DNA from: a virus
IMG/VR virus record: IMGVR_UViG_3300020203_000404
Span: 64,001 to 128,000 of that record
Direction: 5' to 3' (one strand)
Length of the DNA: 64,000 nucleotides
Within the stretch, counting starts at the first letter, position 1. Each line of letters starts with the position of its first letter. Made by a program: the position numbers and the translations under genes. The notes under the pieces are model-generated. The model saw only the letters and a list, made by a program, of their open reading frames with translations. It was not told the DNA's origin and ran no database searches. This document shows, piece by piece, positions 18,925-61,863 of the stretch.

Positions 18925-18954
18925 GACTTAAACGCAATTCAGAAAGGCGTTTAC

Positions 18955-19827: not shown

Positions 19828-19854
19828 AACTGAGTGATGTCGTAAGACTAGAGG

Positions 19855-22922: not shown

Positions 22923-23587
22923 AAGTCATATCATTCTGTCTTTGGGGGAATGATCCAAAATATCTTGTTGGTGCAATGAAAAATATTGAACTCGCACGTA
23001 CACTATTTCCAGACTGGACCTGTCGTTTTTATGTTGGTCAGTCAGTACCGAGCGACACTATTAAGCAATTGCTTATCCCTAGAGATAATGTTGAGGTTGT
23101 TTGCGTGGATGAGCCGGGTGATTGGCGTATGATGTTGTATCGCTTTAGCCCTATCGGTGAAAATGATGTAGAAGTCATGATTAGTCGTGATTGCGACTCT
23201 CGTCTTTCTTTGCGAGAAAAGCTTGCAGTTAACGAGTGGTTGGCTAGTGACAAATCATTTCATACTATGCACTGTCACTTTCATCATTCGGTGCCGATAC
23301 TTGGTGGAATGTTTGGAATTAAAAAAGGACTGTTTTCTGAGCTGTCTCGACACGCTATTGAATGGGCTCAGGCTCGTGAATCTCGATGGCAGATTGATCA
23401 AGATTTTCTAAAGGAAATTGTCTGGCCTATTGTTAAGCACGACACTTTGAATCATGCTGACTTTCATACCAATATTTGGCCGGGTGTTCCATTTCCTACT
23501 CCAATGACGCCTGGATATTTTATTGGTGCCACATATGATGAGAATGATAATATTGACCCGGCACAACTCAGAGCTTTACATGGCTAG
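22919..23587 (+). CDS. Conserved hypothetical, putative GT-A glycosyltransferase
   Basis: KVISFCLWG..PKY..GA..N; SRDCDSR (DxD); PILGGMFG; DQDFL; island context. Confidence 0.55.
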   Translation: MKVISFCLWGNDPKYLVGAMKNIELARTLFPDWTCRFYVGQSVPSDTIKQLLIPRDNVEVVCVDEPGDWRMMLYRFSPIGENDVEVMISRDCDSRLSLREKLAVNEWLASDKSFHTMHCHFHHSVPILGGMFGIKKGLFSELSRHAIEWAQARESRWQIDQDFLKEIVWPIVKHDTLNHADFHTNIWPGVPFPTPMTPGYFIGATYDENDNIDPAQLRALHG

Positions 23588-23678
23588 AAAAGTGTGTGAT
23601 CCTCATGTCGTCTTGACGACAGAGAATTTATCAGAAAGAAAAGGAAGGCTTAAATGATCCGTAAGGGTTATTCATTCG

Positions 23679-24944: not shown

Positions 24945-24960
24945 ATAAAGGAGGCTATAA

Positions 24961-25290
24961 ATGTCAATAACTTTAACAGAGAGTGCTATTAAAGAATTAG
25001 ATCGTATTATGTTAGAACAGAATCTTTCAAAAAATACATGCCTTCGTTTAGGAGTGCGAGGAGGCGGCTGTTCGGGCTTTAGCTATATTTTAGAATTCGA
25101 TGACACTGTGAATGAAGTAGATCAAGTTAATGAACATGGCGGCATTACAGTTGTTTGTGATCCAAAGAGTTTTTTGTATCTTAGTGGTATGAGTGTTGAC
25201 TTTGAGAACACTTTAATGAATCGTGGTTTTAAGTTCATCAATCCTAACGCAGTTAAAAGCTGTGGATGCGGCGAGTCGTTTTCGGCATGA
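24961..25290 (+). CDS. iscA: IscA/HesB A-type Fe-S carrier
   Basis: LRLGVRGGGCSGFSY, NPNAVKSCGCGESF; AAGGAGG SD. Confidence 0.95.
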   Translation: MSITLTESAIKELDRIMLEQNLSKNTCLRLGVRGGGCSGFSYILEFDDTVNEVDQVNEHGGITVVCDPKSFLYLSGMSVDFENTLMNRGFKFINPNAVKSCGCGESFSA

Positions 25291-26159
25291 CAATGCGTAT
25301 TCTAGTTTCATACAGAGGAATTCCTCAGTCTCGTGGCTGGGCGACTGGGGATTGCGTCGTTCGTGCTTTTCAAGAACTTGGGCACGAAGCTGTTCCATAT
25401 GGTAACTACTATCAGACACAAGAGAGACTAGAGGGCTCACGGAAGGTCTTAGAAGAAGACTGGGACTTATTCTTATTTCTTGAATGCGGCGATGGCGATC
25501 CCGTCTATACAGAGCTAATGAATGTACGGTCACGCAAGCGAGCTAGCTGGTTTTTTGATGCCGCACTCTATCCTGATCGTTGGCGAGCAATCAATAACAT
25601 GTTTGGCTTTGATGTTAACTTTATGGCAAACGCCAATATGATCTACGATGGAATGTACTTGCCATACGCCGCCGATGAGAAGTTGCATTTTAGATCTTAT
25701 CAAGAAAAGGTTCGTGACTTTCTAATCATAGGTTCTGATAGACCAGAACGTCGCCACCTTTACAATCTAATTAGACAATATTGTCCGGCAGCAAGAACAG
25801 ATTTTTTGCATGGCGTGTTTAGAGAGCAGTACATTGATGAGATAGCTAGATCTCATTATGTTGTAAATGATGTTGCTGGTGGAGGGGGTGGTTTATTACC
25901 CATGAGATGCACCGAAACCATGGCGGCGTGTAGTGTGCTCCTCAGTGTACAAGATTCGGCCCTGCATACCATTGGCAATGATCTTGAGCACTTCATTTCA
26001 TTTCAAGACGAAAACCATCTCGTTGGCAATATTCCAAAAATGTTTTCTGTGGGAGAAAGTCTTTCCAAGAGAATTGCCACTCAGGGCCAAGAGCATTGCT
26101 TGAAGAACCATACCTACAGGAATAGATGTTCGGCCATTTTGACTAGGATGTTCCCGTAA
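25287..26159 (+). CDS. CgeB-like (Glyco_trans_1_2) glycosyltransferase
   Basis: LPYAAD; IGS.RPER; MRCTETMA; IATQGQEH..KNHTYRNR. Confidence 0.75.
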   Translation: MTMRILVSYRGIPQSRGWATGDCVVRAFQELGHEAVPYGNYYQTQERLEGSRKVLEEDWDLFLFLECGDGDPVYTELMNVRSRKRASWFFDAALYPDRWRAINNMFGFDVNFMANANMIYDGMYLPYAADEKLHFRSYQEKVRDFLIIGSDRPERRHLYNLIRQYCPAARTDFLHGVFREQYIDEIARSHYVVNDVAGGGGGLLPMRCTETMAACSVLLSVQDSALHTIGNDLEHFISFQDENHLVGNIPKMFSVGESLSKRIATQGQEHCLKNHTYRNRCSAILTRMFP

Positions 26160-26161
26160 TT

Positions 26162-26262
26162 ATTCCAGATAGTGCTGGACAAGATGTTGTTTCAAGTAAT
26201 CATATGTATGGGCACCGTTGTTCGACGATCTTAAAAAGTTGTTTCCACATGAAAGAGTCTGA
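26162..26262 (+). pseudogene. Remnant 3' end of a homologous CgeB-like GT
   Basis: Translates GQDVVSSNHMYGHRCSTIL versus upstream GQEHCLKNHTYRNRCSAIL; a one-base frameshift gives K-L-F-P versus upstream R-M-F-P. Confidence 0.7.
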
Positions 26263-26923
26263 CAAGATTAGTATTTTGGTTTGCTGTCACAGCAACGATC
26301 ATGAGCACGACATGCTTTTGCAAGCTGCTCTTGAGTCTTTAACTCGACAGACGTATCAAAATTTTGAAACTGTTTTAGTGCTTGATGAGTGTCGTGAAGG
26401 CACGAAATGGATAGCTGAGCCCTATAGGGATATTTTAAGTCTTAAGATTCATGAGCGTTCCCATAAGCAAGGCTTGGCAATGGCTAAGAACTTTGGTCTA
26501 GCTCGCTGTACGGGTCAATGGGTTGCCTACCTTGATGCTGACGACCAGTGGATGGATTGTAAGCTTGAACTGCAACGCAACTTCCTTTTAGAGAACGAGA
26601 ATACGGATTTTGTATTTTGTGAAGTATGGGATAATTATGCTGGTACGCTAACTCCTAACTGTTTCAAGATTGGGCAATACGAAACCCACGCGGCAATTGC
26701 TGCTGCGATGCCGCGTGAGAATGTTGTATGTCACGGCTCAGCGTTAATTCGTAAGTTAGCTATTGATTCTCTGGGTGGTTACAGTACCGACCGTTTACTA
26801 TTGGGTCGCGAAGACTGGGATTTGTGGCAAAGAGCTATCGCTAATGGATTTCATTTCTATAAAATACCAGAAAGATTGTATATTTATGGCATGGGAACTA
26901 GCGTTGTTCGTGGCGAAGTATAA
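26249..26923 (+). CDS. GT2 glycosyltransferase
   Basis: ISILV; ALESLTRQTYQNFE; GLAMAKNFGL; WVAYLDADDQW; EDWDLW. Confidence 0.9.
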   Translation: MKESDKISILVCCHSNDHEHDMLLQAALESLTRQTYQNFETVLVLDECREGTKWIAEPYRDILSLKIHERSHKQGLAMAKNFGLARCTGQWVAYLDADDQWMDCKLELQRNFLLENENTDFVFCEVWDNYAGTLTPNCFKIGQYETHAAIAAAMPRENVVCHGSALIRKLAIDSLGGYSTDRLLLGREDWDLWQRAIANGFHFYKIPERLYIYGMGTSVVRGEV

Positions 26924-27885
26924 TGAAATTACTTTATTGTGGACTAAGATTCAACTATGGCAAATCACTAGAGGGCGATAGCTACGAATATTGGAATTTT
27001 GAAGCTGGATTGAAGGAATTTTGCTTATCTCATAAAATAGAACTTCAAATTTATTATCCAGACTATTCTAATATTGCTGTTGACGAACTATGCACTACGG
27101 CATTTGATGCCATTATTCACTTTGCCTTTAATGAATCATTAGATTTGCCAGAGTGTATTGCTAAATTGGCATTAAAGCGTGATGTTCCCGTTATTCAATT
27201 TGATGCAGATTCAAGCTGGCGTTTCCAGAACTGGATCTTCCCGCGTCGTGACCGCGTGAGTCACTTTGTCACTACTCATTCTGCCACTATTCCTTGGTAT
27301 GAAAAGAATGGCTTGAAAGTTATTAAGTCACAGTGGGCTGGTTCCCCGGCGTATAAGGCGAATCCGTGGGCGTATATGTACGACGCTACGTTTGTTGGCC
27401 AGAAGCATGGTCAGATGCCGAATGGCAAATTTCTACGCTCAGAGATCGTGGATGCCATTATGAACGCTGGTATCCGCGTTGACATCTTTGGTAATTACTG
27501 GGATGGTTATGCCAACTGGCATGGCTACGCGAAGGACTTTGAAGAAGTGATTCGCGTATTCAATCAGTCGCGTGTCAATTTGAATCTGTCGAATCCATGG
27601 CATCATGGAACGATGCCACAGATTAAGGGCAGGCACTTCGAAATTCCTCAGTGTCAAGGGTTTCAGATTAGTACGCCAGCAGACGATCTTGAATCTTACT
27701 TTGTACCAGACAAGGAAATAGTCATTGCCAAAAACGTTCAAGAGTTGATTGAGAAGACACAATACTATCTTGCCAATCCAGAGGAGCGAGAGGTAATTGC
27801 TCAAGCGGGTCGTGACCGTATGCTTCGTGACCATCAATGGTACCATCGTTTCGAGTACATCTTTAAGGAAGTGGGATTGCTATGA
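26923..27885 (+). CDS. CgeB-like (Glyco_trans_1_2) glycosyltransferase
   Basis: YDATFVG; SRVNLNL; QIKGRHFEIP..GF; YYL.NPEERE.IA.AG..R..RDH.W.HR. Confidence 0.85.
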   Translation: MKLLYCGLRFNYGKSLEGDSYEYWNFEAGLKEFCLSHKIELQIYYPDYSNIAVDELCTTAFDAIIHFAFNESLDLPECIAKLALKRDVPVIQFDADSSWRFQNWIFPRRDRVSHFVTTHSATIPWYEKNGLKVIKSQWAGSPAYKANPWAYMYDATFVGQKHGQMPNGKFLRSEIVDAIMNAGIRVDIFGNYWDGYANWHGYAKDFEEVIRVFNQSRVNLNLSNPWHHGTMPQIKGRHFEIPQCQGFQISTPADDLESYFVPDKEIVIAKNVQELIEKTQYYLANPEEREVIAQAGRDRMLRDHQWYHRFEYIFKEVGLL

Positions 27886-28415
27886 GATTGAATCTAGCAT
27901 CACACGGCGACAACCGCGAAGGCTACGTCAACATTGATTACGATCATCCCTCGGCAGACCTCAAGGCCGATGTTTCGGCACTGCCGTACGAGGAAGATTC
28001 GGTAGATCAGATCCTGGCTTACCACATTCTCGAACACTTTCGAGCCGGTGAGTACGAGCCACAACTATCGAATCCGCTCAATCCCAAGACAGCAATGGCT
28101 GCTCTTGCTGAGTGGCGTCGAGTCCTGAAACCGGGCGGCACACTAGAGATCAAGGTGCCGGACTTCGAGAAGATCGTTTGGCTTTACTTCAACTTCCCTC
28201 AATGGGCCAGAGCAGAATCCAGCGTCAACGCTCCATTTGGTAGCTACTCGGATTGGGTTGTATCTAACGGGCAGCACCAGTGCTTGTTTGACAAGCGGGC
28301 TATGCAGCGACTACTAACCGTATGTGGCTTCACGAACATCACGTTCGTTGACTCGCCAGCGGTTGCCGTAATTGACAGAGCGAATTTAGAGATGTATGTA
28401 ATCTGCTCTAAGTGA
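27882..28415 (+). CDS. Class I SAM methyltransferase (type 11-like)
   Basis: RLNL..G..REGYVNID; LPY..DSVD.I.AYHILEH; EWRRVLKPGG.LEI.VPD. Confidence 0.85.
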   Translation: MRLNLASHGDNREGYVNIDYDHPSADLKADVSALPYEEDSVDQILAYHILEHFRAGEYEPQLSNPLNPKTAMAALAEWRRVLKPGGTLEIKVPDFEKIVWLYFNFPQWARAESSVNAPFGSYSDWVVSNGQHQCLFDKRAMQRLLTVCGFTNITFVDSPAVAVIDRANLEMYVICSK

Positions 28416-28783
28416 TGGTACGCACATACAAAACACTTGAGTTTGGTAGAGCTTCTGGCAATGAAGTATGGCGGTCATACATCGCTCGTGCCGCATCTAA
28501 GGGACTGGCTTGGGAATTGACACGCTGTGAATTTGATGCACTGATATCTCGATCATGTGTCTATTGCAGTAGACCTCCCGGCAACATCAAAAACAACGGC
28601 AGAAACTATGGCCATTTGTTTTACAATGGCATTGATAGAGTTGACAATCGTCTCGGATACATCAAGAGTAATGTAGTCTCGTGCTGTGCCATCTGTAACA
28701 GAGCTAAAGGCACGCTCACCACACAAGAATTCGATCTATGGATTCATGATCTCATGCGAGTACAACATGGACTACCAAACTAG
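28412..28783 (+). CDS. HNH/Zn-finger endonuclease lacking N-terminal domain
   Basis: CVYC...NGIDRVDN..GY..SNVVSCC.ICN.AK. Confidence 0.8.
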   Translation: MMVRTYKTLEFGRASGNEVWRSYIARAASKGLAWELTRCEFDALISRSCVYCSRPPGNIKNNGRNYGHLFYNGIDRVDNRLGYIKSNVVSCCAICNRAKGTLTTQEFDLWIHDLMRVQHGLPN

Positions 28784-29402
28784 ACGCGACAATCACGACT
28801 TCATGACCGAAGAGCACATCTCGGTGTTCCTACGTAATCACAACACGGGCACGAACAATCGTGGTCGTCATCGCTTGGCGTCCCTACTTTTTGAATACCA
28901 ACAACCGACTGTGTTAGACGTTGCCTGTGGTTCTTGTGTCAACTGGGAAGTGTTTAAGGGACGCGGACTCGACTGCCAGTACACTGGCTTGGATCGCACT
29001 AAGAAGATGCTGGCTCACGCTCAAGCACTCTACGGCGACGAAATTAAACTACAAGAAGGCTTCATCCAGAGTCTTCCATTTCAAGATAGTGCGTTTGATA
29101 TAGTAATCGCCAGACACATAATTGAGCACCTTGGCGAAGGCTATGAACAGGCGATTAAGGAAGTCTATCGTGTTGCTTCCAAAGAGGCAATCATCGTTCT
29201 GTTCGTCGATCTAGCCAATGGGCCAGACGACGAAATCAAGGAGTCGGATCCCGACGAGAACGGCTGCACTTACTTCTGGAACACCTACGCTCACGATAAG
29301 TTCATGACTTTTCTTGGCACATTGGGATGTCAAGTCAAGGTGGAGTATGTGCGTACGCCCGGTGCTGCTGCTAATGATACGATCATTCGACTTATCAAAT
29401 AA
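28767..29402 (+). CDS. Class I SAM methyltransferase
   Basis: VLDVACGS; YTGLD; LPFQDSAFDIVIARHIIEHL; EVYRV. Confidence 0.88.
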   Translation: MDYQTRRDNHDFMTEEHISVFLRNHNTGTNNRGRHRLASLLFEYQQPTVLDVACGSCVNWEVFKGRGLDCQYTGLDRTKKMLAHAQALYGDEIKLQEGFIQSLPFQDSAFDIVIARHIIEHLGEGYEQAIKEVYRVASKEAIIVLFVDLANGPDDEIKESDPDENGCTYFWNTYAHDKFMTFLGTLGCQVKVEYVRTPGAAANDTIIRLIK

Positions 29403-29947
29403 TGCACAAACGAATTCAAAACCTTGACGGCAAGAAGTTTGGTAGCTTGACGGCTACTAACATAACTCGTAAACGTCGTAATAGAAAATTGCAGCGTCTA
29501 TGTCATTGTGATTGTGGGCAAGATTCTTGGGTCGAGACAAATGCCTTGATAAGCGGCGGCACCAAAAGTTGTGGCTGTAAGCAAGGCGGTGGTAGAAAAT
29601 TGTCTTTTGGTACCGCCTCAAGAAATGAAGTCTTAAGAAATTACAAAAGCAGTGCTAAGAAACGTGCTCTTGTTTGGAAAATTACCGACAAAGAGTTTGA
29701 CGAGCTAACAAGTGGCATATGTCATTATTGTGGCTCGCCACCCTCTAGAGTCAAACATACTGGAAGAAATTATGGTGACTTTGTTTATAATGGTATTGAT
29801 AGTGCTATAGGATATACTGTCAAAAATGTTGTCCCTTGTTGTACGCTATGCAATAGAGCTAAAAACACCATGAACTATATTGATTTTATTCATTGGATTG
29901 ATAATATCAGGACGCACAATCGTTTGGAGGTTGTATATGTTTCATGA
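29402..29947 (+). CDS. HNH/Zn-finger endonuclease with 3-aa active-site deletion
   Basis: GKKFGSL..CHCDCG..SCGC N-terminus; CHYC; NGIDSAIGY lacks the R-(V/I)-D of the paralogs; CCTLCNRAK. Confidence 0.75.
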   Translation: MHKRIQNLDGKKFGSLTATNITRKRRNRKLQRLCHCDCGQDSWVETNALISGGTKSCGCKQGGGRKLSFGTASRNEVLRNYKSSAKKRALVWKITDKEFDELTSGICHYCGSPPSRVKHTGRNYGDFVYNGIDSAIGYTVKNVVPCCTLCNRAKNTMNYIDFIHWIDNIRTHNRLEVVYVS

Positions 29948-30785
29948 TGTGACGTACGGGGTTTTGCATTACAATCCCAGCCTAGATGCAGGTGCGACTC
30001 GTGCGTATATTAATGCTGTTGATTCTTTAGCACAAAATAGAAGCTCTAGTTTGCGTAGTGAAATTTTTCTTATTGATCAAAATAGTGATCAAGAGTTAAC
30101 GAATACACTTGCTAAAAAATATGGCTTTAGTTCATTATGTTTAAACAAAAACATTGGCATTAGTCGTGGTATCAACCTGTTAGCCAATATGGCTCGCGGC
30201 AAGTATGTGTCATTAGTCACATCAGATGTGATCTTCCCACAAGGACTTGATGAAAGACTTATGTCTGTGCTTGATGCCGACCCCAAGATCTATCAGATCT
30301 GCCCAGTGTCCGACAACTCGTCTCTGGATCACCAGCGTTCGCCTTGTGCTATTGAAGATGGCGTCCTTATTCCCAACCTAGTTCAAGAGTTGACCATTCA
30401 GTATTGGCCACGTACCGTTTTCGACAAGATTGGATACTTTGACGAACGCTGGAAGGCGTGCTACGAGAACATGGACTTTGCTCTCCGTGCCTTCTTGGAG
30501 GGCGGATCTGTCGTAGTCGATCAACGTGCGTTCTGCCACCATGAGCACAACACCACTATGAAGAGTGGTGCGATTCACCATGCATACGACGGCTATCTAC
30601 CTATGCCCAATGGTCTTGATCATCAGCCGCTCTTGCAGATGTGGCGTGACAAGTGGCCCAACCTTGAAAGATACATGAATCACTATGACACATTCACTAA
30701 GGATATGGGCCAAACGCGGGCGGCAATGTTTTTTGCGTATAGCAAGAACGTGTATCTGCCGTATGTACAAGAAGTCCCTTATTAA
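29937..30785 (+). CDS. GT2 glycosyltransferase
   Basis: GGAGG SD; FLIDQNS; NIGISRGIN; ARGKYV; FDKIGYFDE; ENMDF..RA. Confidence 0.85.
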   Translation: MFHDVTYGVLHYNPSLDAGATRAYINAVDSLAQNRSSSLRSEIFLIDQNSDQELTNTLAKKYGFSSLCLNKNIGISRGINLLANMARGKYVSLVTSDVIFPQGLDERLMSVLDADPKIYQICPVSDNSSLDHQRSPCAIEDGVLIPNLVQELTIQYWPRTVFDKIGYFDERWKACYENMDFALRAFLEGGSVVVDQRAFCHHEHNTTMKSGAIHHAYDGYLPMPNGLDHQPLLQMWRDKWPNLERYMNHYDTFTKDMGQTRAAMFFAYSKNVYLPYVQEVPY

Positions 30786-30786
30786 C

Positions 30787-31368
30787 ATGAAACGCTACGA
30801 TATCATTCGTCATCTGATTGAGGCACGCGACTACAAGTCGTATCTTGAAATTGGTGTACTGGAACAAGAAACATTCAACAGCTTGCCGCCATTAGATGTT
30901 AAACATAGTGTTGATCCTAATGGGCAAGCTGTGTTTAATACTACCTCCGACGACTTTTTCAAGAATCATTGTCATCAATATTATGATTTAATCTTTATTG
31001 ACGGCTTACATCTTGAAGAGCAAGTGCAAAGAGATATGGAAAATTCATTGACATACCTAAACGAAGGTGGCATAATTATAGTACATGACTGCTTGCCTTC
31101 GGCAGAGTATGAGCAACTGCGAGAAGGTGTTAGTGGCAAACCATGGACTGGGGACGTGTGGAAGGCATTTGCAAAGCTGCGAGCGGATCGTAGGGACTTA
31201 ATTATGCGTGTTGTGGACACTGATTATGGATGTGGGTTGATTGAGCGTGGTGTCGATCCGGTCGAGTATCACTCAATTGATGGCGATTACACCTGGGACT
31301 TCTTCTGTAAGAATCGTAACGAAATCATGGGTGTTATTACACCGGAGCAGTTCATTGGACGTTCATAA
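30787..31368 (+). CDS. Class I SAM methyltransferase (Methyltransf_24-like)
   Basis: SYLEIGV; TSDDFF; YDLIFIDGLH; LNEGGIIIVHDCLP; WTGDVWKA. Confidence 0.87.
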   Translation: MKRYDIIRHLIEARDYKSYLEIGVLEQETFNSLPPLDVKHSVDPNGQAVFNTTSDDFFKNHCHQYYDLIFIDGLHLEEQVQRDMENSLTYLNEGGIIIVHDCLPSAEYEQLREGVSGKPWTGDVWKAFAKLRADRRDLIMRVVDTDYGCGLIERGVDPVEYHSIDGDYTWDFFCKNRNEIMGVITPEQFIGRS

Positions 31369-31882
31369 TCGAGATTGGGTTGTAGCCCGTAACAATCTTT
31401 TGAATGGTAAGCTACTTGAGATTGGTAGTTTTGTTGTGCCCGGCCAAGAACAGATTGCCTTGCGACCAGTAGTCGAAAAGTTTGTCAATAGCTATCTCGG
31501 CATTGACATGCGTGAAGGCCCTGGCGTTGATCTCGTAACTAGCGAAGACAACGCCTTTCCTTTTGAAGATAACACATTTGATGTCGTTGTATCGTTAGAC
31601 ACCCTTGAACACGTTCGCAACCCTTGGACGTTCATTGAAAACGCAGCGAGAGTCCTAAAGCCCGGTGGTCACTTCTTTTTGGCTACCGTGTTTTCATTTC
31701 CTATTCATGGTTACCCGGATGACTACTGGCGTTTCACCCCCAATTGCTTGAAGATGCTCATCGAGACCTATGGTCTCGAAGTGGCAGGTGATTTGACGCC
31801 ATCTGAATGCTGTACTAAAAACCCTGCACATCACTTGGCGAACCCGACAATCGTTCGTCTAATTGCTAGAAAGCCACTATGA
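31355..31882 (+). CDS. Class I SAM methyltransferase (type 11-like)
   Basis: TTG start after GGAG; LEIGS; YLGIDM..GPGVD; FDVVVS..TLEHV.NPW; RVLKPGG; HGYPDDYWRF. Confidence 0.87.
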   Translation: MDVHNRDWVVARNNLLNGKLLEIGSFVVPGQEQIALRPVVEKFVNSYLGIDMREGPGVDLVTSEDNAFPFEDNTFDVVVSLDTLEHVRNPWTFIENAARVLKPGGHFFLATVFSFPIHGYPDDYWRFTPNCLKMLIETYGLEVAGDLTPSECCTKNPAHHLANPTIVRLIARKPL

Positions 31883-32835
31883 ACGCCAAGACATTAGTTA
31901 CTGGTTCGTCTGGATTTTTAGGTCAACATGTCGTTCCACTCTTACGTGCCGACGGTCATGAAGTGATGACCCCATCAAGTAACTCTTTGAACTTACTTGA
32001 CCAAGACGCTAAGGCAATTGCGAGTTATCTTGTTATCCACGAGGTAAGTACGGTTGTTCATCTTGCTGCAATTTGTGGTGGCATCGGCATCAATAAAGAC
32101 AATCCAGGTAAGTTCATGTATGGGAACTTGCAGATGGGTCTTAACGTTATCGAGGCGTGTCGCCTCGCTAACGTAAAGAAGCTTGTGAATTTGAGTACCG
32201 TCTGCTCGTATCCCAAGAACACGCCGGTACCATTTCAAGAGAGTGATCTATGGATCGGCTATCCCGAAGAGACCAATGCTCCATATGGCATTGCCAAGAA
32301 AACGATTGTGGAGCTTGGTATTGCATACCATAAGCAGTATGGTTTAAACGTCACTAATCTAGTGCCGGTTAATATGGCCGGTGAGCACGATCATTTCGAT
32401 CCTTATTCCTCTCATGTTGTGCCAGCTTTGATTCGCAAGTTTGAAGAAGCTGATCAACAAAGAGAGTATGTAGATATCTACTCAGTTAGTGCCCCACTTG
32501 TGACCTTATGGGGCACAGGATCTGCTTCTCGCGAGTTTTTGTATGCCGGTGATTGTGCCAAAGCGATTGCAATTGCCGTTCAAAAGAATACGGGGCCAGA
32601 TCCCATCAATCTTGGCACTGGTCAAGAAATTACCATCAAGCAGTTAGCCGAGTTGGTAAAGCAAATTGGTGGTTATGTTTCCAATGTCAAATGGGATCAT
32701 ACTAAGCCAGATGGTCAACCACGCAGATCACTAGATGTTTCAAGAGCCAAGAACGTGCTTCACTGGGAAGCTACAACTCCTATTTCCGAAACGGTCCGCA
32801 AGACCATTGACTGGTACAGAGAGAACAATGGGTAG
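31879..32835 (+). CDS. fcl: GDP-L-fucose synthase family epimerase/reductase
   Basis: VTGSSGFLG; HLAAICGGIGIN; STVCSYPK; GYPEETNAPYGIAKK; SHVVPALIRK; WGTGSASREFLY; KPDGQPRR. Confidence 0.95.
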   Translation: MNAKTLVTGSSGFLGQHVVPLLRADGHEVMTPSSNSLNLLDQDAKAIASYLVIHEVSTVVHLAAICGGIGINKDNPGKFMYGNLQMGLNVIEACRLANVKKLVNLSTVCSYPKNTPVPFQESDLWIGYPEETNAPYGIAKKTIVELGIAYHKQYGLNVTNLVPVNMAGEHDHFDPYSSHVVPALIRKFEEADQQREYVDIYSVSAPLVTLWGTGSASREFLYAGDCAKAIAIAVQKNTGPDPINLGTGQEITIKQLAELVKQIGGYVSNVKWDHTKPDGQPRRSLDVSRAKNVLHWEATTPISETVRKTIDWYRENNG

Positions 32836-33073
32836 AACACTAATAGACGTTGACGGTCAAAGATTTGGTAGACTTGTCGCAAGTAACAAAGTCAAGAAAA
32901 TTGGACGTGCTATGTGTCGTCTATGTTACTGTGATTGTGGCAAAAAGACTTGGCAAGCTACAAAAGGATATACCAAGAAGAACTGTGTATCTTGTTGTAA
33001 AATCTGTAATAGAGCTAAAAGCGGCATGGGGTTTGACGATTTTATGAGTTGGATTCGGAGATTACAAGCATGA
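32828..33073 (+). pseudogene. HNH endonuclease with large in-frame internal deletion
   Basis: GQRFGRL..CYCDCGKKTW joined almost directly to GYTKKNCVSCCKICNRAK; the middle found in paralogs 29402/49117 is missing. Confidence 0.75.
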
Positions 33074-34089
33074 ACAAGACTGCTATAATTAGTGGTGTTG
33101 GCGGTCAAGACGGAATGTACTTGTCGCATTATCTCTTGTCCTTGGGTTATCGAGTTGTAGGTATTCGTCGTCGCACATCGACCCCAAACTTAGTTCGATT
33201 ACGTACTTTAATAGGGTCGCCAAACTTTCATATTGTTGATGGTGACATTACTGACATTTCAAGCCTCCAGGACATCGTGCGTCAATTCCAACCGCACGAG
33301 TTCTATCACTTGGCCGCACAGAGCCATGTTGCGATGTCCTGGAAGTATCCTATCGCCACCTGCGAAATGACCGGCCTCGGTGTTTTGAATTGCCTTGAGG
33401 CTTTGAAGCAAGTGAAGCCAGACTGTCGTTTCTACTTTGCTGGTTCAAGCGAACAGTTCGGCAACCCAATTCACAATGGTAAGGTTGTGAGCTTGGACGA
33501 GAACACTCCTATGGAGCCTGAGTCGCCATACGCGGCTGCCAAAGTCTTCGGCTACAATATTGCTCATGTGTATCGCCGTTCGTTTGGTATGTACACCGCC
33601 TGTGGCATTCTCTTCAATCACGAGTCTCCGCTTCGTGGAGAGGAGTTCGTCACACGAAAGATCACAAGCAACCTTGCTCGCGTCAAATGGGGCTTGCAGG
33701 ATTGTGTAGAACTCGGCAACATGGACGCTCAACGTGACTGGGGCTTCGCTGGCGATTACGTCAAGGCGATGCACGGCATGTTGCAGCTAGACACCCCAGA
33801 CGATTTCGTAATTGCAACAGGCAGCACGCACTCTGTGCGTAAGTTCTTTGACGCCTGCTGTAACTGGTTTGAACTCGATCCTGAAAAGGTTTATCGAATC
33901 AATCCTGCATTCAAACGCCCCAAGGATGTTGAAGTATTGTTGGGCGATTCTTCCAAGGCCCGAAAGAAGTTGAACTGGTATCCTGAGTGCGACTTCGATC
34001 AGCTAGTAGACAAGATGTGTCGTTACGACTACCATCTACAGTCGCCTGAACCCAACTTGTTCAGACGTGCTGACGAATTCCTTTTCTAG
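33070..34089 (+). CDS. gmd: GDP-mannose 4,6-dehydratase
   Basis: ISGVGGQDG.YL; YHLAAQSHV; SSEQFG; SPYAAAK; GILFNHESPLRG.EFVTRKIT; RDWG.A.DYV. Confidence 0.96.
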   Translation: MNKTAIISGVGGQDGMYLSHYLLSLGYRVVGIRRRTSTPNLVRLRTLIGSPNFHIVDGDITDISSLQDIVRQFQPHEFYHLAAQSHVAMSWKYPIATCEMTGLGVLNCLEALKQVKPDCRFYFAGSSEQFGNPIHNGKVVSLDENTPMEPESPYAAAKVFGYNIAHVYRRSFGMYTACGILFNHESPLRGEEFVTRKITSNLARVKWGLQDCVELGNMDAQRDWGFAGDYVKAMHGMLQLDTPDDFVIATGSTHSVRKFFDACCNWFELDPEKVYRINPAFKRPKDVEVLLGDSSKARKKLNWYPECDFDQLVDKMCRYDYHLQSPEPNLFRRADEFLF

Positions 34090-41386: not shown

Positions 41387-41394
41387 AGTGTATT
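41385..41394 (+). promoter_or_regulatory. TTAGTGTATT candidate late promoter of virion cluster
   Basis: Intergenic, 47 nt before the first structural ATG. Confidence 0.45.
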
Positions 41395-41441
41395 CATCTA
41401 AGGTCGGGTATCGTTTTTGTACCTTTTCAAGGAAGTTCAGT

Positions 41442-41888
41442 ATGACCTCAATAGTAGCATCAATCGTAGGCAGTGGAACATTGCCTTTTACTCGTGCAAT
41501 TCTTCCACCTTCTCAGCGTGGCACTCAACTTGGTTCCGAGGGTGTTCGCACCGGAATGCAGGTAATGATTGGCAACCCCGAAGACATGACTTCGGTTGAT
41601 GCCTTTGCCGTCTCTGGTGTGTCGCTGGCGGGAACTCCTGTGCGAATCTGGGGACCGGGCATTAGCTCGTTACCTAGACAGCGAGAAGTGATGATTAAAA
41701 ATCAAGGACCGGGCTCTGTTTACATTGGCCCAAACTCAACTGCTGTCATTGCACCCAGTGGTTTCCAGATCAATCCACCTACGGCGAACAACACGTTCAA
41801 CGAAGTAAAGCTTCCATTCTTGTGTAACGTAGACATTTGGGCCAGAGCAGATGGTGCCGGTGCGTCGGTAACTATTATCGCTTACTGA
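41442..41888 (+). CDS. Putative virion protein
   Basis: REVMIKNQGPGSVYIG motif shared with 41916. Confidence 0.55.
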   Translation: MTSIVASIVGSGTLPFTRAILPPSQRGTQLGSEGVRTGMQVMIGNPEDMTSVDAFAVSGVSLAGTPVRIWGPGISSLPRQREVMIKNQGPGSVYIGPNSTAVIAPSGFQINPPTANNTFNEVKLPFLCNVDIWARADGAGASVTIIAY

Positions 41889-41915
41889 TGACACAATCCC
41901 TTTAAAGGGGAGCCC

Positions 41916-42350
41916 ATGTCCTTAGAATACAGCACAATTATTGGCTCAGGTACAACTCCTCACCTAGCACCGTCGCCGGTCTATAACTTTCCAGATGGTA
42001 CGTTTCCGATTCCTGATCAACGCACGGACCTTCGTGCCCGTCGTGGCGAAGGTACCGTCATTCTCAATCCCGAGAACTTCTCGGTGTCGATTGGATTGCG
42101 TCAGCAGGCCATATCTGTTTCAAGCGAAATAGCACTGCCACTAAACCCCCTAGAGAATAGACGTGCTCTTGTTTTGCACAACGCTGGTCCAGGTATACTG
42201 TATATCGGATTATCTGGTGTCACTACTATTGATGGTTTCCCAATTGCTGTAAATGAAAAGATAGCAATTGACTGCCAGGGAACCACGAACGTAACCCTTT
42301 ACGGCGTCTCTGACTCGACTTGCGATGTCAGAGTTCTTGAGTTTGCGTAA
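41916..42350 (+). CDS. Putative virion protein (paralog of 41442)
   Basis: GGGGAG SD; RRALVLHNAGPGILYIG...GF.I; N-terminal IIGSGT.P versus IVGSGT.P. Confidence 0.55.
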   Translation: MSLEYSTIIGSGTTPHLAPSPVYNFPDGTFPIPDQRTDLRARRGEGTVILNPENFSVSIGLRQQAISVSSEIALPLNPLENRRALVLHNAGPGILYIGLSGVTTIDGFPIAVNEKIAIDCQGTTNVTLYGVSDSTCDVRVLEFA

Positions 42351-42742
42351 TGGTCAGCATAGGAGGCATTGTCAGCCTTGGCGGGGGCACAAGCGGTGGG
42401 GGCGGCGGGTCTACATCCGGCATCCAGTCTATCAACGGCCAGACTGGCCCGACTGTTTCATTCACTGGCGTCAACGGCATTGTAGTTGCCGCTGGCGGCA
42501 ACCAGATTGTTATCGACGGTGCGGGTGCATCAGGCGTAACGAGCAAGTTCGCACATTCCTTTTCTTCTATTTCAAGTGGATTGTTTACGCATGGATTAGG
42601 TACTTTGGATGTACTTGTTCAGGTGTACGATAATGGCTCCCCTAGACGTGCCATGATGCCTGACGATATCATTATTGAGAATACTACACAAGTATCACTA
42701 ATCTTCAATACTCCACAATCTGGACGTATTGTGATTGTTTAG
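42350..42742 (+). CDS. Putative tail fibre-associated protein
   Basis: Gly-rich linker; C-terminal THGLGT.DV.VQVYD..PD.I.I....V...FNT.Q.GR.VI domain shared with 42767. Confidence 0.55.
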   Translation: MVSIGGIVSLGGGTSGGGGGSTSGIQSINGQTGPTVSFTGVNGIVVAAGGNQIVIDGAGASGVTSKFAHSFSSISSGLFTHGLGTLDVLVQVYDNGSPRRAMMPDDIIIENTTQVSLIFNTPQSGRIVIV

Positions 42743-42748
42743 TGTAAT
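42739..42748 (+). promoter_or_regulatory. TTAGTGTAAT candidate late promoter
   Basis: Lies before GGAGG SD and ATG 42767. Confidence 0.4.
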
Positions 42749-42766
42749 CATATTTGGAGGAACATC

Positions 42767-43537
42767 ATGGTAAGACTAAATGGCGATCTCATTCCCGGTA
42801 GTAGTGGTCAAGCACACTTGGGCGTGAACGGTGGCGTAGGCGATGCATTTGATATAACCACGCTAACGCCGTTTGGTCGTATTCATATGAACTCTGGCGT
42901 CTGGCACGATCCTATGACGGGTCAATCAGGCGTCCTTAGATATAGCCAAGCCGCAAGTGCGTTTCAGATCTCTATTGATGGAGGTCGTACGTTCAATAAC
43001 TTGGTTACAAGTGCCGGAACTGTTACATCCGTTGGTGTAATTGGTGGTGCTAATCTTACTGGCAATATCGACCTAGCGACCCAAGCGAGCGGCTTCCTTG
43101 CTATCTTTGACACTGCTGGTGCAAGCCCAATCAATTTTGCCGTTGATCATCTAGGTCTATCTGGCCTGTGGAGATTCCCACCACAAGGCTTCAATGGATC
43201 TGTTGTTAATGAATTGACTGACTTCAATGGTACAAAAGTTCAAGGATCGGTAAGTGTTGTTGGTGCCTCTGGTGTCGTTGTTGATATTATTGGTCAAGTA
43301 ATAACGATCACCGCCGGTAATACACTACTGCGAGCATTTGCCCAAACTTTTGGTGCATTTGTAACTTGGACCGTCATTCACAATCTTGGTACGACAGATG
43401 TATCTGTAGATGTTTATGATGCAAGTTCTCCACGTCTATCAATTATTCCCGATGCGATTGCAATTACAGATAGCAATACTGTTACTGTGACTTTTAACAC
43501 CGCTCAAGCTGGCAGAGTTGTAATTTCAGGATTCTAA
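42767..43537 (+). CDS. Putative tail fibre protein
   Basis: N-terminus shared with 44304 (GDL.P..SG.A.LG...PF..(I/V)HM.SG); C-terminal HNLGT domain. Confidence 0.6.
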   Translation: MVRLNGDLIPGSSGQAHLGVNGGVGDAFDITTLTPFGRIHMNSGVWHDPMTGQSGVLRYSQAASAFQISIDGGRTFNNLVTSAGTVTSVGVIGGANLTGNIDLATQASGFLAIFDTAGASPINFAVDHLGLSGLWRFPPQGFNGSVVNELTDFNGTKVQGSVSVVGASGVVVDIIGQVITITAGNTLLRAFAQTFGAFVTWTVIHNLGTTDVSVDVYDASSPRLSIIPDAIAITDSNTVTVTFNTAQAGRVVISGF

Positions 43538-43571
43538 TATGGTAAGTTTACATCTTTTGTTGCGTGGAGAC

Positions 43572-44237
43572 ATGATGCCATTAAGTGGCATCAAAGCTTC
43601 CATTGGTCGTAATACATATGATGGTGCCGCCCCGACTGTGCCAGTGAATGACGTGCATTTACGTTCTCTTAATCTATATGATGGCGGTTCATCTGGCGTT
43701 CTTACTTACAATAATGGTAATAGACGTTTAGATCTAAATCGTAACAATGGGGCTGTAAGACCAATTGTTACGGCGATCGTAGTACAAATTTATGACGCTG
43801 ATGGCACTGGTACACATGTATTTGGTAGCGGCGGCACACCAGTTATTATGTCCACAACACAAGTTAATACTCATGTGAATCTTTTTCTTCTTGGTGGTGC
43901 TGGTTCTGAGATTGGCGTTAAGGAAGACGGAACTTATGAATTGGAATGGCGTGTAACGGCACAAGATGATGGTGGATGGGGTCGTGACGCTAGCATAAGT
44001 ATTTGGCTTGAAGAAGATAATGGTGGTGGTTTTACTGAAGTTGCTGGAACACGCTCTTTCGCTTCAATGGGGATAGACGGAAACGGTACTGTATGGCCAG
44101 CCACAGCCAATGGTTTTCATATTATGCCCATTTTTGATAGTTATGTTTATAGAATCATGGTTGATGATTTGACTGGCGGCTCTACTGGTGCTCAAGTTCA
44201 ATATGGATCATCTTTTATGATGAAGAAAATATATTGA
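43572..44237 (+). CDS. Putative fibre/receptor-binding protein with C1q/BclA-C-like domain
   Basis: GGAG SD; I.VKEDGTYEL.W.V; EVAGTRS; terminal SSFMMKKI. Confidence 0.5.
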   Translation: MMPLSGIKASIGRNTYDGAAPTVPVNDVHLRSLNLYDGGSSGVLTYNNGNRRLDLNRNNGAVRPIVTAIVVQIYDADGTGTHVFGSGGTPVIMSTTQVNTHVNLFLLGGAGSEIGVKEDGTYELEWRVTAQDDGGWGRDASISIWLEEDNGGGFTEVAGTRSFASMGIDGNGTVWPATANGFHIMPIFDSYVYRIMVDDLTGGSTGAQVQYGSSFMMKKIY

Positions 44238-44238
44238 A

Positions 44239-44304
44239 ATGAAAATGGCAATAATAATTACTGGTGTTGGTGCATCACAACTACTTATAAAGAGACTTAA
44301 ATAA
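44239..44304 (+). pseudogene. 21-aa remnant resembling the last strand of a replaced C1q-like fibre gene
   Basis: MKMAIIITGVGASQLLIKRLK*; stop overlaps next ATG (TAATG). Confidence 0.4.
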
Positions 44305-45689
44305 TGGCAAGAGAAGTAGGAGATTTGTGGCCGCAAGTTAGTGGCTCTGCATCTTTGGGTGCGGAGATGCGTAATGGTGGCTTTACCGGAGCGATACGTC
44401 CATTCGCTCATGTACATATGGACAGTGGTATATTTCATAGTTCACTTATTGATAATTCTGGTATCATTAGATTAGACACGGGCAAGGGACTTTATAATGC
44501 ACATGCTCCATCTTTTTCATTTTCTTTTAATGGCGGGAATAATTTTCCGTTGGAAATTGGTGGCAATGCAGCACAACCAGTATTAGAAGCTGCGTATATT
44601 GAGACACCAAGAGGAGACTTGCGTCTTACTGCAAGCGGCACTTTAACGCTTTTAAGTCTTAATAGCGACATTGGCGTTACAACAAATAGCGATACTGTTA
44701 TAAGCGTTTTTAATAATAGCGGCGTCCTACATTACGAGTTTGGTCCTCATCAAGCTTGGTATGTAAAAGCTAGTCACTCAAATACTGGCGGACCATTCAA
44801 TGATGGCTTCTGGCCGATTGCACATTCGGGCAACGTTGCTCAAATGATTGCTAGTAGCACTACAACATTACAACAGGCGTACGTAGCTGGCCGCTCTATC
44901 ATCACAACATCACTTGATGGCGGACCTGTACTAATCTCTGGTCAGACTGCTGTACCATTACGTCTTGAAACCGCAGAAGATAGTTTGGGACATATTGAAA
45001 TGTTAGGTCTACTTAGATCTCCAACAGAATTTCAAAAGCCAGGCACTCTTGTCTTGATGAGTCATGGTTTGAATCTTGACAATCCTTTTGTTGCGTCTAT
45101 CACTGGACAAAACATGATTGCCGCCAAGTCTGCCGGTATACCAACACTTTGGTTACACTGTGGTGGTTCTGGAACGGTTGCAATACGTACTGCGTCTGGT
45201 GTATCTCAGTTTTTTAATATCTTTGCTTCAAATGCAATAACTGAAACCGGCTTGAATGTGCCGTTTTTAGATCCATCACAATCAGTACCAGATAGATTTT
45301 TAAAGTCTATTTCTGGCAGTGGTATTCAAGTTCTTGTTCCTGGCCTTTATAAGATTTTGTATGCGGCTTCGCTAGAAAAAACTGCTGGCGAACTTGCTCA
45401 ACAAGTTAACATAGAGATTCGCATTAATGATATTTGGGGTCAAACATTTAAAATTATTGGCGGCAATGCTTTTTCTACTGTTAGAGATTCAGCATCTAAC
45501 GTTAATACGGCACATGGACAATCTATTATTGATGTTAACAGTGGCGAAGTGCTCAATATTTTTGGTTATTTACCATTCGCTCCTGTGCCACCAAACTCTG
45601 TACGATTCGGCCAAAGATTGTGCAATGTTATTGTAGAGTATCTTGGTCCACAAAGAGGTATCAGTACTGTGAGACTGAAAGTAACATAA
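44304..45689 (+). CDS. Putative tail fibre protein with C1q/BclA-C-like C-terminus
   Basis: Shared N-terminus with 42767; TLQQAY..G motif; GIQVLVPGLYKI.Y; 12 SG dipeptides. Confidence 0.6.
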   Translation: MAREVGDLWPQVSGSASLGAEMRNGGFTGAIRPFAHVHMDSGIFHSSLIDNSGIIRLDTGKGLYNAHAPSFSFSFNGGNNFPLEIGGNAAQPVLEAAYIETPRGDLRLTASGTLTLLSLNSDIGVTTNSDTVISVFNNSGVLHYEFGPHQAWYVKASHSNTGGPFNDGFWPIAHSGNVAQMIASSTTTLQQAYVAGRSIITTSLDGGPVLISGQTAVPLRLETAEDSLGHIEMLGLLRSPTEFQKPGTLVLMSHGLNLDNPFVASITGQNMIAAKSAGIPTLWLHCGGSGTVAIRTASGVSQFFNIFASNAITETGLNVPFLDPSQSVPDRFLKSISGSGIQVLVPGLYKILYAASLEKTAGELAQQVNIEIRINDIWGQTFKIIGGNAFSTVRDSASNVNTAHGQSIIDVNSGEVLNIFGYLPFAPVPPNSVRFGQRLCNVIVEYLGPQRGISTVRLKVT

Positions 45690-46025: not shown

Positions 46026-46263
46026 ACACGATGTTTGGTTTGGCGTTGTTAGGATCGCCTCGCTTCTCGACCCTTTCTTTGTCCGCAGCTACACTCGCTT
46101 CGGGCGTCATTACGCACGCACCAAAGGGTTTACGTTCTGGGCGTCCAAAGAAGGACATGATCTCAGTCCTGAGACTTGCACGCACCTCCTGTGGTACATT
46201 GAATTGCTCCAAGCGTTCACGCAGAATACGATCCAGCGTGAGTCCATTGTCATTACTGTTCAT
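46024..46263 (-). CDS. Hypothetical protein
   Basis: Last ORF of the - arm; overlaps upstream gene. Confidence 0.55.
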   Translation of the reverse strand: MNSNDNGLTLDRILRERLEQFNVPQEVRASLRTEIMSFFGRPERKPFGACVMTPEASVAADKERVEKRGDPNNAKPNIV

Positions 46264-46759
46264 TTTTCCACATTCTTTTAAAGCGGTTGATAGTACGTCT
46301 CTTTAATGAGCGTGCTTGATCTTTATCTATCTCATCTAGTTTGGCAGCCAACTCACTAACCTTTGAGTGGTCCTTGGGAGCCAATAGAACCTCCCCGTCC
46401 CTAACCTTTGCCTTAACATATTCGGCTGTCTTCTTGCGAAAGAAGACGAGCGATCGAATAGTGGGCACCAATTCACGACGAATAGCTTGTTGCCACCTGC
46501 GACAAGTATCGTCGAGCGGCGAGACCTGACTGTTGAGTTCATCTATGATTCGCGAGTCGTTGTATACCATCACGTCACCCTGAATGCCTTGTTTTCGAGC
46601 CACTTCCTTGAGGGCTAGAAACAACACCTTATAGGTGTGGTGAATCTCATTAAAGATAGGACGGCCACGTTCATCCGTTGCCGGGGTGCATTTGAAGCTA
46701 GCTTCAACGCCTTCCCCAGCAACATAGTAACCATCTTTGGTAACGAAGACCGTGATCAT
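46253..46759 (-). CDS. Degenerate RNase H-like protein
   Basis: Y..L..AL.....G...V.VYNDSRII pattern resembles RNase HI; NxAE glutamate absent. Confidence 0.35.
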   Translation of the reverse strand: MITVFVTKDGYYVAGEGVEASFKCTPATDERGRPIFNEIHHTYKVLFLALKEVARKQGIQGDVMVYNDSRIIDELNSQVSPLDDTCRRWQQAIRRELVPTIRSLVFFRKKTAEYVKAKVRDGEVLLAPKDHSKVSELAAKLDEIDKDQARSLKRRTINRFKRMWKNEQ

Positions 46760-61127: not shown

Positions 61128-61407
61128 AACGACTACACTCCGTAACGACATTAAAGACGAGCGGTGATACAATCGACTGACCGGGCTGCGAACGCCAGAA
61201 ACACACCGATCGCACTTTCTGGATGTCAATCGAGATTTGAGAAACTCCGGGACTTTCTGCATTGTCACCGTCGAACGGATTGCCCTGTATCATTTCTGGC
61301 TGCATGAAAATTTGCACGTCGTTCTCTTGCAACGTCATGCCATGTCTGCACGTCCAGCACCGACTTTGTTGCGGCGTGACATCTTCTTCTTCATCATCGT
61401 CATGCAT
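61114..61407 (-). CDS. Cys-containing hypothetical protein
   Basis: CWTC...C...C; acidic N-terminus. Confidence 0.5.
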   Translation of the reverse strand: MHDDDEEEDVTPQQSRCWTCRHGMTLQENDVQIFMQPEMIQGNPFDGDNAESPGVSQISIDIQKVRSVCFWRSQPGQSIVSPLVFNVVTECSRYEKN

Positions 61408-61816
61408 ATTCTTGTTCACTTTCAAGCGGCTGATACTTGTTGATTTGCCTTTGAACAATCTCTTTGGTTACACCATGAGTGTTTCGGGACGCGAATAGTT
61501 TGGCGTCCCACGGACCCTTGATTCGATAAATTGTGACTTCGTAATCAAATTCCTTAGCCATTTGAAGGTACGGAGTTAATTCCCAGCGAGTCATGCTCGT
61601 GTTCGACACGACCACCAGTTCTTTTTCGCTACTGACAGCTTCACGAACACGACGTTGACAGTCAGCGTGAGCTTGACTCAGCTTATTGGCCTCAAAAACG
61701 TACGTGCCGCTCCGCATAAAGAATTCGTCTGCCTCAAAGTGGAGACCTCCGAGTGCTTTAGCGGCGGTGGACTTGCCTGAGCCACTCGGCCCACGAAAGA
61801 TGATGAGCTTCTTCAT
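61400..61816 (-). CDS. AAA_33/N4BP2-like P-loop kinase (polynucleotide kinase-like)
   Basis: IFRGPSGSGKST; EAD.FF; AH..C; VVSNT; RN.HGV. Confidence 0.85.
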   Translation of the reverse strand: MKKLIIFRGPSGSGKSTAAKALGGLHFEADEFFMRSGTYVFEANKLSQAHADCQRRVREAVSSEKELVVVSNTSMTRWELTPYLQMAKEFDYEVTIYRIKGPWDAKLFASRNTHGVTKEIVQRQINKYQPLESEQEYA

Positions 61817-61822
61817 TGCTTT

Positions 61823-61863
61823 ATCATACAACAGGGGCGTGCTCTTGTCAAGCACGCCCCTGT
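61823..61863 (-). promoter_or_regulatory. sigma70 promoter TTGACA-N17-TATGAT embedded in a perfect 13-bp inverted repeat
   Basis: ACAGGGGCGTGCT cttgtca AGCACGCCCCTGT; ATG 6 nt after the -10. Confidence 0.75.

Follow-up and report, generated by a model that had tools for sequence, protein, structure and literature searches.

An uncultured phage, known from a 151,810-bp IMG/VR virus record (IMGVR_UViG_3300020203_000404), carries in its tail and fibre proteins a Ser-Gly (SG) dipeptide followed by a hydrophobic residue, in excess of what composition predicts and at positions that are kept among its relatives. The window analysed here is the 64,000-nucleotide stretch comprising bases 64001-128000 of that record, and the element in question is a six-gene fibre module at 41388-45689 of the window. 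The SG-hydrophobic motif is a lineage-wide, Ser-specific and position-conserved tag found only in neck, tail and fibre proteins. The presence of such a tag across unrelated proteins suggests a trans-acting reader. The motif may be the acceptor for Ser-linked O-glycans made by a glycosyltransferase (GT) island in the same window, a reading to which we give somewhat less than an even chance; both the attachment of anything to these serines and the role of the island in it are inferences.

A modular tail-fibre cluster occupies 41442-45689, with several fibres that have a common N-terminal anchor and differing tips. The main tail block lies mostly upstream, and its final tail-tip proteins reach into the window at 3-3052. 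The genes of both groups within the window are listed here (aa, amino acids; GS, Gly-Ser); proteins are named below by the first base of their genes.

3-299, plus strand: C-terminal end of a 1105-aa tail protein (whole gene at 60982-64299 of the genome; 18 SG in the whole protein against 8.0 expected).
299-2221, plus strand: tail-module protein of 640 aa (8 SG and 11 GS; p=0.08, no significant excess).
2393-3052, plus strand: protein of 219-228 aa that closes the main tail block (7 SG against 2.3 expected, p=0.004).
41442-41888, plus strand: small fibre-module protein of 148 aa, from an ATG at 41442 in an open reading frame (ORF) that opens with a GTG at 41388 (3 SG); paralogue of the 41916 protein.
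41916-42350, plus strand: small fibre-module protein of 144 aa (2 SG), syntenic in 10 of 10 relatives; paralogue of the 41442 protein.
42350-42742, plus strand: short Gly-rich fibre protein of 130 aa (5 SG), with the same C-terminal tip domain as the 42767 protein.
42767-43537, plus strand: fibre protein of 256 aa (7 SG), with an N-terminal anchor that holds three SG and a small C-terminal beta-sandwich tip.
43539-44237, plus strand: fibre paralogue of 232 aa with a degenerate anchor (3 SG and 5 GS, no excess).
44304-45689, plus strand: fibre protein of 461 aa (12 SG), with an N-terminal anchor, a shaft and a predicted TNF/C1q-like trimeric head at the C-terminus (residues ~296-452).

The original prediction started from hand counts of SG against GS, which were reproduced exactly (SG/GS of 12/3 in the 44304 protein, 7/3 in 42767, 5/2 in 42350, 3/1 in the 3-299 fragment and 5/7 in DnaE); the 2393 protein has 7/3 from its ATG and 7/4 when read from 2366. 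It had also described the pattern as not universal, as the 299 and 43539 proteins bear out, and had noticed an x-S-G-hydrophobic context; the residue after Gly is indeed hydrophobic at 62% of the sites, against a background of 32%. Composition-preserving shuffles confirmed an SG excess over expectation in the fibre module and in the structural set. For single proteins, the shuffle p was 0.002-0.0035 for 44304, 0.004 for the protein read from 2366, 0.017 for 42767 and 0.02 for 3-299; the excess in the 42350 protein alone was not significant. When the six ORFs at 41388-45689 were pooled, SG was the top-ranked dipeptide (32 against 16.8 expected, p=1e-4), and SG followed by Val, Ile or Leu (SG[VIL]) was found 16 times against 4.1 expected (p<=5e-5), with GS, at 17, equal to expectation.

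The strongest ORFs lie just upstream of the window and encode, besides the 1105-aa protein, proteins of 505 aa (12 SG against 3.6) and 1599 aa (37 against 18.6). Nine of the 190 ORFs in the whole genome have a shuffle p<0.01, three of them at the shuffle floor. In the 29 ORFs of the structural blocks, SG occurs 158 times against 88 expected (z=7.4) and ranks first of the 400 dipeptides, the runner-up having z=3.0; NG, DG, TG and AG are at expectation there, and the remaining genome has 128 SG against 144 expected. The excess extends over at least 13 proteins with little detectable paralogy and is confined to neck, tail-tip and fibre proteins, with no excess in the capsid protein (1 against 1.2), the tape measure (8 against 12), the portal or the enzymes. 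In the tail blocks, the observed-to-expected ratio (O/E) is 2.10 for SG and 4.96 for SG[VIL], and 53% of SG pairs stand before Val, Ile or Leu; TG is under-represented in the same set (0.77), and NG and DG are at ordinary levels (1.24 each). The consensus reads [A/V/P/G]-S-G-[V/I/L]-hydrophobic, with Pro and Ala enriched at -1 and Val and Ile at +1.

Eight unrelated phages, namely lambda, T4, T5, Microcystis phage MaeS, Bacillus phage Stills, cyanophage PSS2, PaV-LD and Che8, were used as controls with the identical ORF caller and statistics; since no tail block was defined in PaV-LD, the tail-block control consists of seven. The genome-wide SG O/E is 1.12-1.37 in all eight, which indicates that the composition-only null is too low (SG is underestimated by 10-35%) and that the shuffles overstate the excess. 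In the seven control tail blocks, the O/E is 1.06-1.58 for SG and 0.74-1.72 for SG[VIL], and Val, Ile or Leu follows 12-21% of SG; among single proteins, lambda J has an SG O/E of 1.86, and lambda J and H reach about 1.9. Che8 is the only control with GT2 matches, and its tail block has neither an SG nor an SG[VIL] excess. Within the clade, the excess recurs in two complete, divergent members (G005 and G006), in which SG[VIL] has an O/E of 4.1 and 4.5 in structural homologues versus 1.1-1.25 in non-structural proteins.

These corrections bear on whether the excess could be artefactual, through composition, paralogy, repeats or a post-hoc choice of proteins, which we regard as very improbable. 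The null is biased in all control phages, the anchor common to three of the fibres contributes three SG to each, and further module members are paralogous; after correction for the control baseline and for paralogy, the excess of plain SG in the six-gene cluster is only marginal. Against an artefact, the pooled tail set keeps its rank among the 400 dipeptides, the excess is replicated in both clade members, and when paralogous segments are counted once SG[VIL] remains significant (9 against 3.0, p=0.003; SG 21 against 12.5, p=0.0075). The strength of the signal therefore lies in the SG-hydrophobic tripeptide, the excess in the upstream tail block, the positional conservation, which is independent of the counting test, and the recurrence in G005 and G006. 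The SG codons are mixed (TCT, AGT, AGC, TCA and TCG, thus both TCN and AGY, with GGT, GGC and GGA), so the excess is at the amino-acid level, and a DNA-level word or a codon-pair cause is ruled out. Paralogy or internal repeats as the whole cause are ruled out by the excess after segment collapse and by the comparison of the LamG-like repeats discussed below. A third candidate, SG as a substitute for the deamidation-prone NG and DG, was rejected because these are not depleted relative to the seven control phages.

Conservation of position gives the second line of evidence. In an alignment of 22 members of the 44304 family (~40% identity), SG serines are 73% conserved versus 27% for other serines (p=1e-4); S (0.73) and G (0.81) are local conservation peaks between flanks of 0.25-0.5, and SG accounts for 8 of the 20 dipeptide columns conserved at >=80%. 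A full hidden Markov model (HMM) search extended the family to 392 relatives. Among ~115 aligned representatives with mutual identity <=50%, the SG pairs at residues 13 (114/114), 41 (115/115), 52 (118/119), 289 (115/115) and 298 (114/115) are near-invariant, and two further pairs are kept at ~90%. Thr rarely replaces the SG serine in this family, and Asn and Asp are also almost never accepted. When all tail and fibre pairs with G005 and G006 were compared (58% identity), SG was the top-conserved dipeptide, kept in 80% of 272 comparisons, versus 38% for all dipeptides, 47% for NG, 54% for DG and 12-40% for other S-x. Outside the tail and fibre proteins, SG is kept in 32% of cases in head proteins, in 2 of 16 in the tape measure and in 20 of 44 in enzymes; the capsid protein has a single SG, which is not conserved. 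The 1599-aa protein, compared at 44% identity, retains 33 of its 37 SG, against 25% of its other Ser and 56% of its other Gly. In G005 and G006, 16 of 18 are kept in the orthologues of the 1105-aa protein, 2 of 3 in those of the 41442 protein, and 4/7 and 7/7, respectively, in those of the 2393 protein; five pairs of the 42767 protein (S13, S43, S54, S108 and S132) are invariant in 10 orthologues. Comparison of the sequences thus supports strong site-specific selection on the SG-hydrophobic motif, and the motif that the original prediction had glimpsed is real and Ser-Gly-specific.

The original prediction had named a beta-turn preference as the alternative. A generic preference of this kind falls short, as NG and DG are at ordinary levels and far less conserved; nor would chance, composition, DNA words or paralogy suffice as a cause. 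A stricter structural explanation is a close competitor, although we would not call it probable. In this view Ser-Gly would start strands as a tight turn or bulge (a type I turn with a G1 bulge, [A/P]-S-G-hydrophobic, is one example) that the beta-rich tail and fibre proteins of this clade require to fold or to pack as trimers, and the GT island would have another task, for instance to remodel host surface glycans or another acceptor. Pro or Ala at -1 and Val or Ile at +1 are as expected of a turn followed by a strand. In the AlphaFold2 (AF2) model of the 44304 protein, 7 of 12 SG serines are placed at -1 to +3 relative to a predicted strand start versus 6 of 34 other serines (p=0.006), and the anchor hairpin of this protein is also predicted in the 42767 model. 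Of 302 SG sites, 228 are conserved and only 21 shifted, so that there is little turnover or nearby compensation. Some SG are part of repeat units of the 1599-aa protein, in seven 14-residue units with VSG[VI]IGG and in an 'A-x-S-G-I' after two LamG-like copies, and a milder SG excess is present in tail proteins of phages that lack GTs, as in lambda J.

Several observations are difficult to reconcile with a purely structural role. NG and DG, the classical turn dipeptides, show neither excess nor depletion and are kept far less often than SG; Thr, Asn and Asp, the usual cap substitutes, are almost never accepted; the tail blocks of T4, T5, lambda and the other controls are without an SG[VIL] excess; and the motif is shared, within a single lineage, by many proteins without homology to one another. 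Copies of homologous domains also lack Ser or SG at matching positions, which indicates that the fold itself does not demand SG. The anchor-hairpin position S52-G53 reads DG in 6, SG in 2, NG in 2 and QG in 1 of the distant cellular repeats (weak alignments and a small sample), and the LamG-like repeats of the 1599-aa protein have SG in one copy and non-SG in sister copies, yet each such SG is kept among 16 orthologues.

The machinery that could read the motif lies between the two groups of genes, as follows.

13896-14570, plus strand: sigma-70-family factor (Pfam Sigma70_r2 and r4), directly before the island.
14570-34089, plus strand: soluble glycan-building island; by Pfam, four GT4, four GT2, two CgeB-like and four methyltransferase ORFs, an fcl-like epimerase and a GDP-mannose 4,6-dehydratase.

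The island, of ~20 kb, encodes ~10 GTs and is broken up by HNH ORFs. No convincing transmembrane (TM) segment was found in any island ORF, and GT2 and CgeB-like genes are present in 12 of 12 clade records. The glycan-acceptor reading would work as follows. The motif, at the N-terminal edge of beta-strands, would be the recognition and acceptor site of a trans-acting phage function; the soluble GTs of the island would O-glycosylate its Ser in the cytoplasm before or during tail assembly; and other GTs and the methyltransferases would extend the glycan, with GDP-6-deoxyhexose supplied by the gmd- and fcl-like enzymes. In its fullest form, which we consider possible but less than probable, some 13 neck, tail-tip and fibre proteins would be marked at ~160 positions per set by a Ser-Gly-hydrophobic sequon that is read by the phage's own soluble machinery. 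In that form, the machinery would consist of the 10 GTs, the 4 methyltransferases and the GDP-deoxyhexose pathway, and the sites would matter enough for assembly or stability to be invariant across the clade. The claim that SG sites are acceptors for a priming GT of the island stands in part: the motif is real, Ser-specific, tail-confined and co-occurs with a soluble island, but no priming GT can be named among generic GT2, GT4 and CgeB-like ORFs, and the major capsid protein has no excess.

A number of points weigh against glycosylation. A mild generic SG excess is found in all unrelated controls, and off-target avoidance is not convincing, non-structural proteins of the three genomes having an SG O/E of 0.87, 1.05 and 1.04 and an SG[VIL] O/E of 1.04-1.25. 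The capsid protein, a known target in mycobacteriophages, is not enriched. The modelled strand-start placement in the 44304 protein also fits a structural turn, the hydrophobic residues after Gly would be buried on folding, and near-absolute positional invariance is more like that of a structural or assembly-critical residue than that of a decorative glycosite. The island proteins gave only generic GT2, GT4 and CgeB-like matches, far below NCBIfam cut-offs, and none is similar to a known protein O-GT. The solubility of the island is weak evidence, since GT2 and GT4 enzymes without TM segments are also at work in lipid-linked polysaccharide pathways, and host lipid-linked glycans could be the substrate of the island instead. 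Finally, the fibre, distal-tail and CgeB-like GT alignments, when run against IMG/VR, gave no relative without GTs; the matches are of the same clade and all bear the island, so that the co-occurrence of motif and island is uninformative.

A trans-acting reader other than the GT island would also fit the lineage-wide, tail-restricted, Ser-specific conservation, and the motif is not tied to sugars specifically. The motif could direct another modification (phosphorylation, acylation or ADP-ribosylation) or serve as a docking motif for a tail or fibre chaperone. This we consider unlikely. No candidate kinase, acyltransferase or dedicated chaperone was found near the fibre module, the genes upstream of which encode MazG, an FAD oxidoreductase, a class II ribonucleotide reductase (RNR) and ThyX; the island is the only large modification machinery seen; and ~160 docking sites per protein set would be unusual for a chaperone.

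For the glycan-acceptor reading, the nearest mechanistic precedent is the family of bacterial autotransporter heptosyltransferases (BAHT; TibC and AAH, acting on TibA and AIDA-I). TibC and AAH heptosylate only Ser, in the cytoplasm, on beta-helical adhesins, and one mapped site is N-S-G-G (PMC4358343). The likeness would be a soluble cytoplasmic enzyme that places many Ser-only O-sugars on a beta-rich surface adhesin; in the phage, Ser is rarely exchanged for Thr and TG is under-represented, which matches Ser-only glycosylation of this kind, and the sites are predicted to lie at strand starts. The differences are that no GT9, heptosyltransferase-like or iron-finger protein was recognised here by Pfam or NCBIfam (remote homology being possible), that the donor, judged from the gmd- and fcl-like genes, would be GDP-6-deoxyhexose instead of ADP-heptose, and that the substrates would be many phage tail proteins, whereas those of BAHT enzymes are single repeat passenger domains.

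Mycobacteriophages are similar in that phage GTs are proposed to decorate the phage's own particle. According to a summary (PMC12619734) of Freeman et al. 2023 (Cell Host Microbe), their virions are O-glycosylated by 1-4 phage GTs, with the glycans on the C-termini of capsid and tail-tube subunits. Here, by contrast, the capsid protein is without excess, the motif is internal and dispersed instead of C-terminal in capsid and tail-tube proteins, and there are ~10 GTs. In the chlorovirus PBCV-1, the capsid is glycosylated by virus-encoded cytosolic GTs together with a viral GDP-mannose dehydratase and GDP-fucose synthase (PMC5408694, PMC9614988). Virus-encoded soluble GTs and gmd/fcl-type enzymes are common features, as methylated sugars and non-canonical acceptor sequences would be. 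PBCV-1 differs as a eukaryotic algal virus with N-linked glycans on the major capsid protein and no Ser-Gly motif.

The original prediction had drawn its analogy from proteoglycans, in which core O-xylosylation uses a Ser-Gly acceptor with acidic neighbours. The phage sites have the acceptor Ser followed by Gly, but the analogy fails in the flanks, which are hydrophobic: Asp or Glu makes up 4.3% of positions -4 to -1 and +2 to +5 versus 9.8%, and only 5 of 158 sites have at least two acidic neighbours. Neither a xylosyltransferase-type GT nor a UDP-xylose pathway was found by Pfam among the island ORFs. A last likeness is of fold. The predicted jelly-roll head of the 44304 protein resembles the BclA, ExsFA and C1q/TNF tips of the exosporium (Z 14-15, root-mean-square deviation (rmsd) 2.5 A over ~130 residues), and BclA is a glycoprotein fibre of the Bacillus exosporium. 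BclA differs in that it is glycosylated on Thr of collagen-like GXT repeats and not on SG, and its sequence is unrelated; the shared TNF/C1q-like fold says nothing on modification.

Mycobacteriophages are the only phages whose particles are known from experiment to be glycosylated, with the capsid and tail tube shielded as a result. If SG sites are glycan acceptors, tailed phages would run their own sequon-directed protein glycosylation, and a sequence rule would be available to predict glycosylated virions from metagenomes. The consequences would extend to the way hosts are recognised, to the stability of the particle and to its resistance to proteases or host defences in microbial mats. A purely structural motif would still be an unusually strict, previously undescribed signature of fibre and tail proteins, useful for annotating an uncultured clade in which PHROGs and Pfam see almost nothing.

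From folds and PHROG matches we infer, on good grounds, that the products of 41442-45689 are virion proteins. The module is syntenic and found in all relatives. An anchor of ~80 residues is common to the N-termini of the 42767, 43539 and 44304 proteins, the downstream parts of which differ, and in 11 genomes the anchor is present on 2-4 paralogues per genome with differing tips, as is typical of a modular fibre cluster. In the 43539 protein, the second SG of the anchor reads S-L in the anchor alignment; a single orthologue of this protein was found, in the relative L008. The AF2 model of the 44304 protein has a mean predicted local distance difference test score (pLDDT) of 70, with >85 over most of the head (~300-450). 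With VIA-align, the head matches EDA, APRIL, C1q and BclA (Z 14-16, rmsd 2.2-2.8 A over 126-144 residues), with like results from Foldseek; residues 296-452 are modelled as a ten-strand jelly-roll of the TNF/C1q-like type. The 42767 model is of low confidence except for the C-terminal tip domain, which matches tail-fibre proteins in BFVD; the protein has PHROG matches at 1e-8. The C-terminal 80 aa of the 42350 protein match PHROG families of head-decoration and virion structural proteins and the protein is 41% identical to the 42767 C-terminus; the small beta-sandwich ends of both match many phage tail-fibre models. The two first proteins of the module, 41442 and 41916, are paralogues with 27% identity and a fold that was not recognised; Pfam and PHROG searches with the 41442 protein were without match, and its orthologues in five relatives begin at residue 19 of the GTG ORF.

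The fibre anchor (44304-44560, residues ~40-85; also 42767-43020) contains an Asp-box/BNR-like hairpin with the pattern F-S-x-D-G-G-x-T-[FY]. The hairpin unit (~40 residues) occurs in 18-25 copies in two giant secreted proteins with sorting domains of the type IX secretion system (T9SS), P0141 (2866 aa) and P0157 (2053 aa); domains in these giant proteins include Por_Secre_tail, SdrD_B and F5/8 type C. Four or more cryptic LamG-like repeats (Laminin_G_3; hhalign 85-97%) are present in the 1599-aa tail protein, which is encoded upstream of the window at genome 56180-60979. The protein also has a PKD domain at its C-terminus and, at residues 1270-1354, the 14-residue unit x-x-V-S-G-[VI]-I-G-G seven times in tandem; its probable role is that of a hub or fibre that binds carbohydrate.

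The genes for TerL, the portal, the major capsid protein (345 aa) and the tape measure (1791 aa) precede the window and are followed by those for the large tail-tip proteins. Within the window, the gene order is DnaE, sigma factor, glycan island, MazG, FAD oxidoreductase, class II RNR, ThyX and fibre module. Neither the DNA nor the fibre proteins have a match in cultured phages, in which the top TerL match has ~25% identity, and a PDB sequence search gave nothing significant. GTDB gave a single match, a 158-kb same-clade contig in a metagenome-assembled genome (MAG). The contig NZ_JAILWB010000012.1 (157,945 bp; same clade, with an identical set of GT2 matches) is binned in a MAG labelled Hydrogenophaga sp., which may either point to the host or result from faulty binning; the G+C content of the phage is ~46%.

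Among the island ORFs, the first GT4 (14570-16369) has a C-terminal DUF4214 (E=3e-7), which could be a protein-interaction module. The HNH ORFs of the island are at 21302-21781 and 23679-24944, one of them free-standing between GT genes and the other an HNH_3 match at the N-terminus of an IMPDH/GMP-reductase-like protein. Beyond the fibre module, where the coding strand changes, a Ser-rich 91-aa ORF at 46031-46306 overlaps the start of the minus-strand gene 46253-46759 and is probably no gene. On the minus strand at 61400-61855, outside the structural modules, a 151-aa ORF of no known function has 3 SG against 0.64 expected (p=0.02).

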